Assembly: GCA_026391215.1 (NCBI GenBank)
Contig: JAPLDX010000056.1
Span: 107,452-171,451, forward strand
DNA length: 64,000 bases
Source: Bacteroidia bacterium
Lineage (GTDB): Bacteria > Bacteroidota > Bacteroidia > Bacteroidales > VadinHA17
Direction of reading: 5' to 3'
This document shows positions 2,763 to 31,545 of this stretch, one piece after another (within the stretch, counting starts at the first letter, position 1; every line of letters starts with the position of its first letter). Below the pieces are notes generated by a model. It had not been told where the DNA came from and made no database searches. It saw only the letters and a program-made list of their open reading frames with translations. The translations under genes were made by a program, and so were the position numbers.

Positions 2763-3206
2763 ATGGATATTGTAATTAAGAATAAGAAGGCATCGCATGA
2801 TTACGAGTTCCTTGAGAAATTCGTTGCAGGAATAAAACTCACAGGGACAGAAATCAAATCTATCCGGCTTGGTAAAGCTGCTCTTGCAGATTCATATTGT
2901 TTCTTCAGCGGGGGGGAGCTTTTTATCAGGGGCATGCATATTGCTGAATACTGGTGGGGGAACCTTAATAATCATGATCCGCTGAGGGAACGGAAGCTCC
3001 TTCTTAATAAACGTGAGCTGAAACGAATTGAAAGAAAGGTCAAGGAAACGGGTCTGACAATTATCGTCACTAAAGTCTTCATCAATGAAAGGGGTCTTGC
3101 AAAGGCGGAGATTGCCATTTCGAAGGGCAAGAAGGAATATGATAAGCGCCAGACAATCAAGAAGAAAGATTCAGACAGGGAGCTTGACAGGATCCGGAAG
3201 AAATGA
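2763..3206 (+). CDS. smpB: SsrA-binding protein
   Basis: NKKASHDY, AGIKLTGTEIKSIR, RERKLLL, KGKKEYDKR motifs. Confidence 0.98.
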   Translation: MDIVIKNKKASHDYEFLEKFVAGIKLTGTEIKSIRLGKAALADSYCFFSGGELFIRGMHIAEYWWGNLNNHDPLRERKLLLNKRELKRIERKVKETGLTIIVTKVFINERGLAKAEIAISKGKKEYDKRQTIKKKDSDRELDRIRKK

Positions 3207-3219
3207 TTTTTTAGGGATC

Positions 3220-3281
3220 ATAAACCACCCCGTCCCGACGCTTTGGTCGGGACACCCCTCCTTTAAAAAGGAGGGGAAAGT
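3220..3281 (+). repeat. Double-hairpin repeat, copy A1
   Basis: ATAAACCACCCC-GTCCCGAC(gctttg)GTCGGGAC-A-CCCCTCCTTT(aa)AAAGGAGGGG-AAAGT; identical to 3745-3806. Confidence 0.97.
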
Positions 3282-3299
3282 ATAATTGTTTTAAACTCG

Positions 3300-3356
3300 T
3301 TTCTCCTCCTTTTCAAAGGAGGAGTACCCCGCCTGTGGCGGGGGGAGGTGGTTTAT
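3300..3356 (-). repeat. Double-hairpin repeat, inverted variant B
   Basis: Reverse complement reads ATAAACCACCTCC-CCCCGCC(aca)GGCGGGG-TA-CTCCTCCTTT(ga)AAAGGAGGAG-AAA; same leader and two stems as copy A. Confidence 0.92.
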
Positions 3357-3715
3357 AGAGTAAGATTATCCATTATTATATTAATGACAAATTCAGGTTC
3401 CTGAAAAACAAATCGATTCTCAAATCTTATAACTTTAAAACCTTTTTCTTCAAGTATCCTATCTCTTTTTTCATCTCTCTGAATTTCTATATAATCACCA
3501 TGAAGATTCCCATCAAGTTCAATAATCAGCCTATCAGAAGAACAATAAAAATCAACGATAAAATTCTCCAGGCTATGTTGTCTTCTGAATTTCTTGCCTT
3601 TTAATTGTTTGTTTTTAAGCATATTCCATAGTACTGCTTCTGCAGAGGTAGATCGATTTCTCAACTTCTTCCTAATAGGCTTGAGTTCGGTTTTATTTGA
3701 AGAATATCTGGACAT
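3353..3715 (-). CDS. DUF559 / Vsr-like (very-short-patch-repair superfamily) endonuclease
   Basis: LRNRSTSAEAVLW, KFRRQH, IVDFYC, IIELDG..H, D..RD..L...GFKVIRF.N motifs; ATG 3715 preferred over TTG 3730. Confidence 0.92.
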   Translation of the reverse strand: MSRYSSNKTELKPIRKKLRNRSTSAEAVLWNMLKNKQLKGKKFRRQHSLENFIVDFYCSSDRLIIELDGNLHGDYIEIQRDEKRDRILEEKGFKVIRFENRFVFQEPEFVINIIMDNLTL

Positions 3716-3744
3716 ATTATAGAAATACAAGTGAAACTTACAAT

Positions 3745-3806
3745 ATAAACCACCCCGTCCCGACGCTTTGGTCGGGACACCCCTCCTTTAAAAAGGAGGG
3801 GAAAGT
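3745..3806 (+). repeat. Double-hairpin repeat, copy A2
   Basis: 62/62 identical to 3220-3281 by direct reading. Confidence 0.97.
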
Positions 3807-3870
3807 TTAATAATTATAATTCTATTTAAAAGCGAAACAAATTCTATAGGTAATAGTCCCTCTTCCTATA

Positions 3871-4596
3871 TTAGAAGTTCGGGCTGAGGAGATATCTTGA
3901 GTAGAATTTAACAATTGTATCAACAGCCTCCTTTGAAGTATCAACGATAGTGAAGATGTTGAGGTCATCCGCTGATATGTTATGTTCTTCGGCCAGCATT
4001 TCCTCTTTAATCCAATCCATCAATCCCTTCCAGTATTTTTTACCAACAAGAATAATCGGGAATTTACCGATTTTCCTGGTCTGTATAAGGGTGATTGCCT
4101 CAAAGAGCTCATCAAATGTTCCGAATCCTCCCGGGAGCACGATAAATCCCTGAGCATATTTCATGAACATTACCTTCCTTACAAAGAAATGGTCAAAAGT
4201 AATGAGCTTGTCAGCATCAATATATGAGTTAGGCCGCTGCTCAAAAGGCAGGTCAATATTAATACCTACTGACTTCCCGTTGCCTCGTTTGGCGCCTTTA
4301 TTTGCAGCCTCCATAATACCGGGTCCGCCTCCGGTAATAATCCCATAACCATTCTGGACAAGCCTGAAAGCAATATCCTCGGCAAGGCGGTAATATTTAT
4401 CATTATGATGTGTTCTTGCAGATCCAAAAATTGATACGCATGGCCCTATACGTGAAAGTTTTTCAAAACCTTCAACCAGCTCGGAAATTATTTTAAAAAC
4501 TCTCCAGGAATCTGTGGTATGGATCTCATGCCATGTTTTTTCTTCGAAGGCGTCTTTTGTCAATTCTATCTGTGAAGGTTTATCCTTTTTGCCCAT
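3871..4596 (-). CDS. LOG-family Rossmann-fold nucleotide phosphoribohydrolase (TIGR00730-like)
   Basis: FGSAR, TGGGPGIMEAAN, FFVRK, PGGFGTFDE motifs. Confidence 0.92.
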   Translation of the reverse strand: MGKKDKPSQIELTKDAFEEKTWHEIHTTDSWRVFKIISELVEGFEKLSRIGPCVSIFGSARTHHNDKYYRLAEDIAFRLVQNGYGIITGGGPGIMEAANKGAKRGNGKSVGINIDLPFEQRPNSYIDADKLITFDHFFVRKVMFMKYAQGFIVLPGGFGTFDELFEAITLIQTRKIGKFPIILVGKKYWKGLMDWIKEEMLAEEHNISADDLNIFTIVDTSKEAVDTIVKFYSRYLLSPNF

Positions 4597-18102: not shown

Positions 18103-18217
18103 TACTCACCCCCCAACCCCCTCTCTGCTAAAGCAAAGAGGGGGAGCTAAATAGCTGTATATAAATAAGTTGTCCCCCTCCTTGCTTCAGCAGGGAGGGG
18201 GACAAAGGGGGTGGGTA
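18103..18217. repeat. Orphan REP doublet (REPIN-like inverted pair of hairpin repeats)
   Basis: Left TACTCACCCCCCAACCCCCTCTCTGCTAAAGCAAAGAGGGGGA; right reverse complement TACCCACCCCCTTTGTCCCCCTCCCTGCTGAAGCAAGGAGGGGGA; AT-rich spacer; between convergent genes. Confidence 0.85.
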
Positions 18218-29093: not shown

Positions 29094-31545
29094 AAAAAAC
29101 TCTTTTTACCCTGCCGGGGATTGAGGTAAGTATCTCATAAGGGATGGTTCCGCATTTTTCGGACAGCTCGTCGATCCTGATATTTTCACCGAAGATCTCA
29201 GCCTCATCGCCTTCTTCAGCTTTCAGACCGGTAATGTCAGCCATACACATATCCATGCATATATTTCCAATTATTGACACCCTGGTTTTTCTGATAAAAA
29301 GGGATCCGTTCCTGTTGCCGAGCCTTCTGTTAAGACCATCAGCATAGCCCACAGGAAAGATGGCAACAGTCCGTTCCATATCTGACACATCAGCACATCC
29401 ATATCCGACAGGCTCTCCTGCCGGAATCTTCTTTATTTGAGAAATCCTTGTCTTAAAGCGTCCTGCCGGCTTCAGGTTCAGTCCTTCAAAGCTGCCGACA
29501 CCATAAATGCCTATGCCCGGCCGTACCATATCAAACTGGTATTTAGGAAAACGCACGATACCCGAGGAATTGCAGATATGTTTGAGGAACTGGTATCCTG
29601 TCGCTGTCCTGATTTTTTCAGCAGCTTCAATGAATATTTCTGCCTGGCGATTAGTGAAGCTGTCAAACCGGGGATCGTCGCTCGCGGCAAAATGAGAAAA
29701 AACCGATACTATTTTCAGGGATTCAAGAGATCTGATAAGTAATGCCAGCTCCTCAATATCATCAGGCAGGAAGCCAAGCCTGTGCATCCCGCTGTCGATC
29801 TTGATATGGACAGGGTAATGAATCAGTCCGTGTTTAGAGGCAACCTCCGAAAATTTCTTAAGAGATTCGAAGTTGTATATCTCAGGTTCCAGATCATACC
29901 TGATCATTAGTTCTGCCGATGAGCTTTCAGGATTCATTACCATAACAGGCAGAGTAACTCCTGCATTTCTCAGTTCAACTCCTTCATCGGCATAAGCAAC
30001 ACCGAGATAACTTACACGTTGGAACTCAAGTAATCCTGCAATCTCAGCAGGACCTGCCCCGTATGCAAAAGCCTTTACCATCGCCATAATGCGCGTTCCG
30101 GGATCAAGGTATTGCCTGAATTCGTTGAGGTTATGCACTATAGCATCCAAATTCACCTCAAGAACAGTCTGATGTACCTGCTGTTCAAGGAGTTTCCCTA
30201 TTCTTTCGAACTCAAATTTTCGGGCTCCTTTCAGAAGAATTATCTCGCTATGGAACTGATCAGGATTAAAGCGATGTACAAATTCATCAGTGGAATAATA
30301 GAATACTGCATCTTGTGCAAAAAACGAGCTGTTCCTTGCAAGCGCAGGGCCGATTCCTATGAATTTGTATAGCCCGTTTTTCTTTACCAGATCCGCCACC
30401 CCGCTGTACAACTCCTTTTCGTCCCTTCCGCTTTGAACAAAATCTGAGAGAATAAGTGTGGCTTTCCTGTTATTCTGCCCCTTCAGGTATTCAATAGCCA
30501 TTCCAAGAGAGCCAGGATCCGAATTATAATAATCTTCAACAAGCTGGCTGTTGTTGATGCCTGCTTTAATTTCCATCCTCATGGCTACTGATAACAGGTT
30601 GCCCATTCCTTTTTTGATAATCTCCGGATCTTTCCCCATCGACAGACATACTGCTGCGACAGTAATTGCATTTTCCGTTGAAGCCCGGTCATTGAATGGA
30701 ATAACGAAATCATATGTTTTCCCCTGGTAACTAGTTTCAAGTTTTGTCCCACTTCCGGGCAATGAACTCTTTTTTACAAAGATTGATGCATGTGCATTTT
30801 CACATGACCAATCTATGAGTTTCTTCCCCTTTAGTGACCGGTCATTCATTACCAGCTTGTGAATAATTTTTTGGTCACTGCAATAAATTATCATTGAGGC
30901 ATTTGCAAAAAGCTTAAGCTTCTCCCCTGCTTTTGCGGTGATATCAGGGAAGCTCTCACTATGGGCATCACCTATATTTGTAATCACCCCTATCTCAGGA
31001 TCAATAATTTTCCGGAGGTTTTCCATTTCACCGGGCTGTGATATTCCGGCTTCAAATATTCCGATGGTATACCTGTCATCCAGTTTCAGTATCGACAACG
31101 GCACTCCGATTTGGGAATTATAGCTTTTTGGACTTCTAATAACCGCTGCTGAAAGCCCAAGTATATCTGCAAGCCATTCCTTTACTATAGTTTTCCCTGT
31201 ACTGCCGGTAACTGCGATTACAGTGGACTTAAATAATTTTCGGTGATAAGCTGCAAGAAGCTGAAGTGCAGTAACTGTATTTTCCGTCTGAATGAAAGCT
31301 GCATCAAGATAAATGCTCATATCTCCCGGCACTCTCTCAACAACAAATACCCTGATCCCTTTTTTATAAAGCGAATCAATAAATAAATGCCCGTCATGGT
31401 TCTTACCATGTAGTGCAAAGAATGCAAGTCCTTCTGCAACGCTGAACCGGCGGCTGTCAGTAAGAATATCCGAAACTTCCAGACCAGGATTTATAGTTAG
31501 GGTTCCGTTGACTATCCGGGCAATATCTGAAGCAGTATATCTCAT
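29083..31545 (-). CDS. alr: Bifunctional MurF-like ligase / alanine racemase
   Basis: AVTGSTGKT Mur domain; [11 protein letters not shown] lysine, [19 protein letters not shown]. Confidence 0.93.

Follow-up and report, generated by a model that had tools for sequence, protein, structure and literature searches.

We examined a stretch of 64,000 nucleotides (hereafter, the window) from a Bacteroidia bacterium of the VadinHA17 lineage (contig JAPLDX010000056.1, positions 107,452 to 171,451 of the forward strand), in which a small gene encoding a DUF559 protein is enclosed by structured repeat units. The gene lies within the 664 bp that separate two convergent genes, smpB and a LOG-family gene, and the order of the features is a repeat unit designated A1, a spacer, an inverted unit B, the DUF559 open reading frame (ORF) and a second A unit, A2. 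A preliminary description of this locus, made from the sequence alone, had reported an intact nuclease gene of about 120 codons between the two convergent genes, two identical 62-bp direct repeats, an inverted variant and an 18-nt spacer, all of which were confirmed. The features are as follows.

3220-3281: unit A1, G-rich strand minus, identical to A2 at 62 of 62 positions; on the plus strand its parts are the outer tail ATAAACCACCCC (3220-3231), hairpin 1 (3232-3253), hairpin 2 (3255-3276) and AAAGT (3277-3281).
3282-3299: AT-rich spacer of 18 nt, joining the hairpin-2 ends of A1 and B.
3300-3356: unit B, G-rich strand plus, an inverted variant with 53-nt arms that are 74% complementary; its parts are hairpin 2 (CTCCTCCTTT/AAAGGAGGAG), hairpin 1 (CCCCGCC/GGCGGGG) and the mirror tail GAGGTGGTTT.
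3353-3715: DUF559 gene, minus strand, 120 aa from the ATG at 3715; an alternative TTG at 3730 would give 3353-3730 and 125 aa.
3745-3806: unit A2, G-rich strand minus, identical to A1 and 29 nt upstream of the DUF559 ATG, with its mirror tail facing the gene.
2763-3206: smpB, plus strand, left border of the insertion site (Pfam SmpB, E=8e-55).
3871-4596: LOG or lysine-decarboxylase-like gene, minus strand, right border of the insertion site (Pfam PF03641, E=5e-34).
18104-18216: gene-less doublet of a sister repeat family with the outer end GGGGGTGRGTAC, consisting of a unit at 18104-18144 (G-rich strand minus), a 28-nt AT-rich spacer and a unit at 18173-18216 (G-rich strand plus).

The 62/62 match between A1 and A2 was never reproduced in 100 shuffles of the window. 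A1, the spacer and B together constitute a gene-less doublet, and the end of unit B overlaps the stop codon of the DUF559 ORF. The ATAAAC/GTTTAT ends of B and A2 point at the gene, as had been described. The gene was also said to be much more AT-rich than its neighbours; it is indeed AT-richer, but only moderately so, with 31-34% GC against 38-46%. Using a strict unit finder, A1 was detected with a stem of 9, a linker of 23 and a mirror of 9, and the doublet at 18104-18216 with stems of 10 and 11, a linker of 3 and mirrors of 10 and 11. Comparison with Rfam gave no match at the gathering score, the best being a miRNA hairpin look-alike with 30.9 bits against the 90 needed.

The gene product matched the Pfam family DUF559 (PF04480) with an E value of 7e-33 and 113 bits against a cut-off of 20.6, covering profile positions 6-108 of 109, and the closest sequence with a solved structure was that of another DUF559 protein, 3HRL (E=8e-16). 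A structure model with a pLDDT of 76.5 displayed the Vsr fold. When this model was used in Foldseek, 3hrl (2e-6), the homing endonuclease I-Bth0305I (3r3p, 3e-5) and Vsr (1vsr, 3.5e-3) were retrieved and, more distantly, the endonuclease domain of an R2 retrotransposon. The residues invariant among seven aligned paralogues, the window's protein and six others, include D55, E66, D68 and H72, which are presumably the active-site residues of this fold. The window's protein is a predicted Vsr-like PD-(D/E)XK nuclease. To our knowledge, no function beyond the designation 'Vsr-like' has been assigned to DUF559, a family of small nucleases with a very wide distribution. PADLOC gave weak partial matches to DpdF (2.9e-5) and to HEase ('homing endonuclease', 0.0056), and the NCBIfam model NF007294 scored below its cut-off (66 against 218 bits). 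Among phages, one record contained a relative.

Each unit, folded as single-stranded DNA with ViennaRNA, which models the hairpins only, formed two hairpins with about -18 kcal/mol and a z score of about -4.7, and the A1+B doublet reached -45 kcal/mol with a z score of -8.6. Beyond the two hairpins, every unit possesses a third element, an outer tail, which had been overlooked in the preliminary description. On the G-rich strand of unit A, the order is a pyrimidine arm CCCCTCCTTT, a loop, a purine arm AAAGGAGGGG, a T, hairpin 1 and the tail GGGGTGGTTT, which mirrors the purine arm of hairpin 2 in such a way that each G faces a G and each A of the arm faces a T. In unit B, the arm AAAGGAGGAG and the tail GAGGTGGTTT both differ from those of unit A, and therefore arm and tail co-vary; the mirror match is 10/10 positions in both units. 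All four variable positions beside the G runs obeyed the mirror rule in 93 of 118 units of the source genome, which had been defined without applying the rule at these positions; 2000 shuffled pairings averaged 32.9 such units and never exceeded 49. The main exception was a GGGA/AGAG type with 10 members. In the flanks of DUF559 genes from other genomes, a mirror copy was found within 50 nt downstream of 131 of the 327 asymmetric pyrimidine/purine hairpins versus 12 upstream, and more than 20 distinct co-varying arm/tail pairs were present. A 'direct repeat' rule over all purine runs did not discriminate (198 versus 175 sites), as A-rich low-complexity runs satisfy both rules. Counting the reversed pattern is not a valid control for units that are mirror-symmetric, and a census of perfect-stem hairpins was dropped because it missed imperfect stems.

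Watson-Crick pairing does not account for a mirror relation, which can be explained by an antiparallel purine-motif triple helix (G.GC, T.AT, A.AT). As the tail mirrors the purine arm, a single-stranded unit can fold with its tail covering that arm. Judged by its sequence, the layout is that of a class II purine-motif intrastrand triplex, and we assign the units, as predicted triplex formers, to the described BoxC/PIT/TM_ECO class. The preliminary description had called the repeats REP-like (REP, repetitive extragenic palindromic); they are not a new REP type. Repeats of the BoxC/PIT/TM_ECO class have been known in Escherichia coli since the 1990s. The E. coli motif was described successively as BoxC, PIT elements and TM_ECO, with the consensus CCCTCNCCC N3-6 GGGNGAGGG N3 GGGNGAGGG, and its authors report a stable triplex in vitro by circular dichroism and nuclear magnetic resonance (Holder 2015, PMC4666352). 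In vitro evidence of this kind has been published for the E. coli motif alone. The block order is the same as in our units, namely pyrimidine arm, loop, purine arm, short loop and mirror G-rich block (PMC4666352, and Hoyne/Maher 2000 as cited there). Units of the form CCCCTCTCC..GGAGAGGGG TT GGGGTGAGG in two of the foreign loci (L090, L096) resemble the E. coli sequence CCCTCTCCC..GGGAGAGGG CCG GGGTGAGGG. Further resemblances are the high copy number per genome, with two subtypes often joined in an inverted pair (members of types A and B in E. coli, Table 1 of PMC4666352), and the rearrangement-prone loci noted in the accessible text of that paper. There are also differences. According to the same text, neither a linked mobility gene nor a consensus of flanking genes was found, whereas a DUF559 gene is a recurrent cargo or neighbour here, and in the window's family the second loop harbours a whole hairpin.

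This second loop measures 20-23 nt and holds the complete, hypervariable hairpin 1, so that it is not the short loop of the TM_ECO class; linkers in the sister families are mostly 2-4 nt and do agree with it. The window's unit is consequently a variant of the TM_ECO class and not a strict member. A perfect stem of at least 5 bp was present in 36 of 73 distinct long linkers versus 105 of 1460 shuffles. Because the ITxF search described in PMC4666352 used loops of 1-6 nt, the window's family would be missed by it, and Bacteroidetes are not mentioned in the accessible text of that paper. In the GTAC-family units of the source genome, the hairpin CCCCCTCYTTGC / GCAGRGAGGGGG retains a T.G pair at one position on the G-rich strand, corresponding to a C.A mismatch on the other strand. 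Considering that Vsr enzymes act at T:G mismatches, this conserved pair is a possible recognition feature.

The gene and the units proved to be linked throughout the source genome (3.39 Mb, 41% GC, 135 contigs). Nine PF04480 hits were present, GC-rich units lay within about 30-120 bp of all nine, and at the eight loci with both flanks visible there were inverted units on both sides in every case. The strict finder recognized units on both sides at 5 of 8 genes and on at least one side at 8 of 9. Among trials with random 400-bp intervals, units within 150 bp flanked both sides in 0.015% and one side or both in 1.9%. The whole genome contained 209 strict units, compared with 9 after block shuffling, and most were members of gene-less doublets, so that the gene-less copies which the preliminary description had proposed to count are abundant. 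Spacers of inverted pairs clustered at 23-30 nt and 43-50 nt, representing the gene-less doublets; the remaining spacers were 421-552 nt long, and all four of these contained a DUF559 ORF.

Four DUF559 protein clades pair with four unit families in this genome:

Clade C16, C111, C29 and C3: units with outer ends GGGGGTGRGTAC, 72 such motifs.
Clade C109 and C64: units with GGGG[AT]GAGG ends.
Clade C125 and C88: C7/G7 hairpins.
The window's gene: the double-hairpin family.

The window's own repeat family has one further pair of copies in the genome, a gene-less doublet of the same build at C128 ~31130-31260. The abundance of units lies in the sister families and not in the family of the window. 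Most families of this genome have the gene between hairpin ends and the mirror tails on the outside. In the window's subfamily, on the other hand, the gene stands between mirror-tail ends and is followed by the doublet (B, spacer, A), an arrangement shared by homologues in Bacteroidales, Flavobacteriaceae and Chitinophagales. One type of unit lies upstream of the gene and another downstream, just as the two members of an inverted pair in E. coli differ in type. An A-type unit occupies the position equivalent to A2 in the congener G003 and in the loci L054, L056, L062 and L079.

Linkage was also observed in other phyla. In a scan of species-representative genomes, DUF559 was confirmed in at least 565 of at least 598 candidate stretches, and the best 80 were examined; being closest to the window's protein, these over-represent its subfamily. 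Among the 74 loci with usable flanks, an inverted repeat above the 95th percentile of shifted controls was found in the flanks of 50. Strict units were present on both sides at 37/74 loci versus 0/133 shifted controls, and on at least one side at 55/74 versus 13/133. The corresponding figures for loci in congeners were 11/27 versus 0/52 and 15/27 versus 1/52. With a relaxed finder, a unit was detected within 250 bp of 13 of the 15 DUF559 genes in five genomes (Patescibacteria, Fraserbacteria, Ignavibacteriaceae and a gammaproteobacterial metagenome-assembled genome). Among these is a Minisyncoccia genome of about 0.5 Mb, in which inverted units frame all three DUF559 copies. All five copies on cyanobacterial plasmids have units within 150 bp, and a copy from Photobacterium has a unit array on one side only. 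The layout of a gene with flanking repeats proposed in the preliminary description thus recurs at 9/9 loci of the genome, in congeners, in other phyla and, as described below, at ycjD of E. coli.

We made several observations on the surroundings of individual foreign elements. On the plasmids of Synechocystis sp. B12, DUF559 elements adjoin DUF1156 genes in three loci, L209 (CP101712.1 34715-36417), L210 and L212, and a BREX PglX methyltransferase gene in L211 (CP101716.1 14545-16247). In L209, both sides of the element look like coding sequence of one interrupted DUF1156 gene. The 1021-bp contig JADGEA010000560.1 (L062) reads B, spacer, A, DUF559, B, spacer, A and once more the start of the gene, with a period of about 550 bp; this tandem or circular permutation could be due to a tandem array, to a circle or to misassembly of a multi-copy element.

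Repeats of this kind might be taken for ordinary REPs moved by REP-associated tyrosine transposases (RAYTs) or IS200-like transposases, or for terminators or insulators, with DUF559 genes nearby by chance. The genome does contain seven Y1_Tnp (RAYT/IS200-like) hits (C31:312-656, C101:10667-11005, C119:58523-58864, C100:45544-45885, C57:21299-21541, C62:7196-7420 and C93:6-143), and the window's locus is situated between convergent genes, where REPs and terminators collect. However, five of the six RAYT-like flanks considered (C93 lay outside the set) each carried a REP family of their own, such as AACCGCTCCGCGGT, CCGTCAGCTGAAGCTGACGG, GATCCTCTACGAGGATC, GGCTCTTTCAGAGCC and GCGAAGTTNCAAACTTCGC, and C-run/G-run units were not found in any of the six. 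Classical RAYT-REP sets thus coexist with DUF559 sets. As for terminators, no site with a GC hairpin and a T run was present at 3100-3950 of the window, a mirror tail would have no role in one, and PIT elements displayed neither promoter nor terminator activity in earlier work as cited in PMC4666352. Together with the linkage statistics (5/8 versus 0.015%; 37/74 versus 0/133), these results largely refute this explanation, which we now regard as extremely improbable.

The most clear-cut individual example comes from E. coli K-12, where the single PF04480 gene is ycjD (1351407-1351760, minus strand). TM_ECO no. 9 (1351204-1351239 in Holder Table 1) lies 168 bp beyond its stop codon, a proximity with a chance of about 0.003 by our own arithmetic, assuming 18 TM loci in 4.64 Mb. 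The stop codon itself falls within a degenerate CCCTCTCCC..GAGGGGG hairpin unit. A duplicate of roughly 45 nt from the 3' end of ycjD is present about 70 nt past the stop, before TM_ECO no. 9 (L158 3230-3440, ycjD-fabI). The numbers of TM_ECO units (at most one mismatch) and PF04480 hits were 25 and 1 in K-12, 34 and 1 in 55989, 2 and 0 in IHE3034, 2 and 0 in CFT073, and 15 and 0 in Sakai; the five strains amount to at most one or two independent contrasts. According to the accessible text of PMC12817139, the fabI-sapF interval holds ycjD in phylogroups A, B1 and C as well as in two other sequence types, and the eefRABCD operon in other lineages.

The smpB-LOG junction was compared among congeners, as the preliminary description had suggested. 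It lacks DUF559 in 15 of 18 congeners, in 12 of which the two stop codons are only 1-20 nt apart. At the same junction, a DUF559 gene accompanied by one A-type unit is present in G003; in G001, which is sister to the window's genome, there are unit B and a remnant of the gene, with no A1 at the corresponding place; and one congener has an unrelated insert of 765 bp. On a tree of SmpB and LOG, the four carriers need three changes, two of them forced by well-supported branches, and G005, the sister of G003 (support 100/95), has an empty site. The preliminary description had named vertical synteny in all relatives, homologues without such flanks and the lack of other copies as findings that would speak against it; the results were the opposite in each case.

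Further signs of past mobility and of a selfish nature came from the elements themselves. The element at C128:9197-9474 shares both ends with the C111 element (left 82 nt, 90% identical; right 159 nt, 71% identical) and retains the last ~110 nt of the ORF with the middle gone; it is an internal deletion derivative of a C111-type element. Nineteen doublets of the C111-element family align end to end including the spacer, and the alignment stops at the flanks. Gene-bearing elements measure about 570-600 bp and gene-less doublets about 113-140 bp. These gene-less inverted doublets are derivatives of gene-bearing elements, resembling miniature inverted-repeat transposable elements (MITEs) or REPINs. 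Decay is also evident, with an in-frame TGA in the C29 copy and a DUF559 remnant at C125:16040-16207. Among 41 congeners, DUF559 hits numbered 0-9 per genome, several copies being interrupted, and correlated with the number of matches to a proxy unit pattern (Spearman 0.47; the p value of 0.002 is nominal, as related genomes are not independent).

The units within one locus resemble each other closely. Copies equivalent to A1 and A2 are identical or nearly so in related loci; those in L056 are identical, and those in L054 differ at three core positions, of which the two in hairpin 1 compensate each other. Between species, hairpin 1 is wholly different. In the window, A1 is identical to A2 even though it is missing from the sister genome G001. 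This pattern is one of concerted evolution, in which the units of a locus are copied repeatedly onto one another.

Some of these observations may also be accounted for by homing, in which a free-standing DUF559 endonuclease gene invades pre-existing doublets, used as landing sites or homology arms, and the repeats spread by other means (slippage, an unknown enzyme or host recombination). I-Bth0305I has the nearest fold among characterized enzymes (Foldseek E 3e-5, TM 0.62-0.75), and the PADLOC match to 'homing endonuclease', although weak, points the same way. Like free-standing homing endonuclease genes, the DUF559 gene is small, encodes a nuclease only, shows presence and absence at one conserved site, which has been filled in separate lineages, and is not accompanied by a target duplication; the units also persist without the gene. 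Duplications reminiscent of co-conversion were found as well. The C125 element (C125:18582-19226) sits at the 3' end of one member of a tandem array of permease paralogues, and about 55 nt of the gene end (..NPVEALRYE stop) recur, diverged, just beyond it; a second, internally deleted copy stands behind the preceding permease paralogue (C125:15820-16325), and the duplicated tail of ycjD is of the same kind. Empty sites could not be established for the C111 and C125 elements, as the C111 flanks are non-syntenic in congeners and orthology at C125 is blurred by the permease array. On the other hand, the window's protein is only 18-20% identical to I-Bth0305I and lies outside any intron or intein, and unlike homing genes, DUF559 genes stand between structured inverted repeats, of which gene-less copies are in large excess. 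The gene of the window's subfamily is situated outside the doublet. On both sides of a gene the units belong to the family proper to its protein clade, a point that fits a cognate pair of enzyme and site equally well. No other candidate enzyme is linked to the units, the RAYTs having their own separate REPs. Finally, the internally deleted element grades into the doublets, and the doublets are therefore derivatives rather than older targets. We consider that homing alone is unlikely.

Another possibility is that DUF559 proteins are host nucleases which act on T:G mismatches or remove hairpin and triplex obstacles, and that the repeats gather for unrelated reasons. The homology to Vsr, which extends over the catalytic core, and the T.G pair of the GTAC-family hairpin agree with this. 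So do two published observations: VsrA of Caulobacter, which has a DUF559 domain, acts like a Vsr-type nuclease linked to methylation and triggers an SOS response in the absence of a cytosine methyltransferase, as described in the accessible text of PMC12907096, and the conservation of ycjD extends over E. coli phylogroups A, B1 and C (PMC12817139, accessible text). However, copies range from 0 to 9 per congener genome and include pseudogenes and fragments, three copies occur in genomes of only about 0.5-0.7 Mb, and the gene is present or absent at one and the same junction, a multi-copy, patchy and repeat-framed distribution unlike that of a housekeeping repair gene. Matched inverted units on both sides and the deletion derivative also argue against a host function, and the neighbours in the window are smpB and LOG, with no methyltransferase partner. 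We therefore judge this explanation to be quite improbable.

Our results favour the interpretation that the locus belongs to a widespread selfish class in which a DUF559 gene is framed by inverted triplex-capable units, analogous to RAYT-REPIN systems, and we would give this a probability of roughly 0.6. The data show a linkage of nuclease family and structured repeat that is specific, ancient and recurrent across phyla, together with the mirror rule, the deletion derivative, the presence or absence of the gene at one junction, and the build of an autonomous element with miniature derivatives. We infer that the nuclease binds and cleaves the units and that the system is mobile. The nuclease would recognize a folded or extruded unit of its own family and nick it, after which host recombination or repair synthesis would copy units, doublets and the gene into new or homologous places. 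Such a nick-and-copy mechanism would explain why target duplications are lacking, why the A units evolve in concert and why such repeats have been reported to be unstable, and would fit the duplicated flank segments at C125 and ycjD. A wider proposal is more tentative, and we would put it somewhat short of even odds: DUF559 proteins would be structure-specific nucleases for intrastrand purine-motif triplex/hairpin units, and the two would together make up an unrecognized, phylum-spanning class of mobile DNA, including ycjD and BoxC, whose ends are set by a three-stranded fold rather than by a transposase-binding sequence. This would account both for the origin of BoxC/PIT/TM repeats and for the genomic instability reported around them.

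Several points weigh against this interpretation. A nuclease of 120 aa has no strand-transfer domain. The geometry of gene and units is not uniform across families, the foreign sample leans towards the window's subfamily, and the strict finder gave no unit at 12/27 congener loci and 19/74 other loci, some of these being misses of the finder, as with the short stems at C125. The 15 units of strain Sakai, which has no PF04480 gene, indicate that units persist without it, and the eight congeners without DUF559 have a median of 25.5 proxy hits versus 40 in the rest, a difference that is not significant. The preliminary description had inferred recent activity from the identity of A1 and A2. The identity stands and is the sole sign of current activity; no very recent copy or burst was found, as doublets are 70-93% identical and two gene-bearing copies 89%. 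No target-site duplication was seen by eye in 14 GTAC-family pairs. In four metagenome DNA runs, no contig joins across the element to give an excision joint, but these were Logan contigs only, which break at repeats, and no run containing the sequence was on record as RNA; in one run (X6) part of the gene is without contig cover and the flanks are covered, so that the contig results weigh neither way on excision or expression. As to the literature, the methylation-linked behaviour of VsrA (PMC12907096) fits a repair enzyme. The accessible text of PMC4666352 reports no triplex in duplex DNA or by dimethyl sulphate footprinting in vivo, and cites earlier work in which PIT elements had no effect in vivo.

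The analogy with RAYT-REPIN systems drawn in the preliminary description is apt, and the DUF559 system is distinct from the RAYT-like genes of the same genome, which carry other REP families. As in REPIN-RAYT (Bertels and Rainey 2011, PMC3116915, accessible text), a single gene lies between structured repeats in inverted orientation, inverted doublets without a gene and with a short spacer number tens to hundreds, gene and repeat are paired in a family-specific manner, and repeats can outlive the gene. In contrast, the enzyme here is a predicted PD-(D/E)XK Vsr-like nuclease and not an HUH Y1 transposase, and the repeat has a mirror third block in addition to a palindrome, where a REP has only a tetranucleotide tag. 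Genomes carry several DUF559 copies (0-9), frequently as pseudogenes, whereas RAYTs are typically single-copy (bioRxiv 10.1101/119735, accessible text). The elements also resemble MITEs and their parent insertion sequences in possessing terminal inverted repeats, an AT-rich core and a deletion series (581 bp to 285 bp to about 115 bp) in which short elements share both ends with a longer gene-bearing element. They differ from these in that the parent has no DDE, HUH, serine or tyrosine recombinase and no target-site duplication is made.

The repeat class has already been described; the link to DUF559 and the anatomy of the element were not found in print. The literature searched contained no paper linking DUF559 to triplex repeats, and the supplementary tables of flanking genes by Holder, which lay outside the search, may bear on this. 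If our interpretation is correct, BoxC/PIT/TM repeats and DUF559, two long-standing orphans, would explain each other. If the nuclease reads the triplex fold, this would be a natural system of protein-triplex recognition and a route for selfish DNA independent of transposases and introns. What makes the finding of high interest is that the hypothesis lends itself to direct tests in E. coli K-12, which has ycjD and about 25 BoxC units. The layout also provides an annotation rule for such elements and their gene-less derivatives in Bacteroidota, Patescibacteria, Cyanobacteriota and Pseudomonadota.

Two minor observations concern copy number. In the metagenome runs X4 and X6, the summed contig depth was 250-310 over positions 3236-3302 and 3772-3838 of the window versus 10-20 over the flanking genes, and loose ends showed the same hairpin 2 joined to other hairpin-1 sequences; the unit family is therefore multi-copy across organisms of these sediment communities. 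The commonest 11-mers of the source genome were GATTATGATAA (81 copies) and TGGGGTGATTA and TGGGGCGATTA (about 55 each). Joined, they would translate as W-G-D-Y-D-N-D-G, presumably not a DNA element but a calcium-binding or FG-GAP-like motif that is repeated in proteins.

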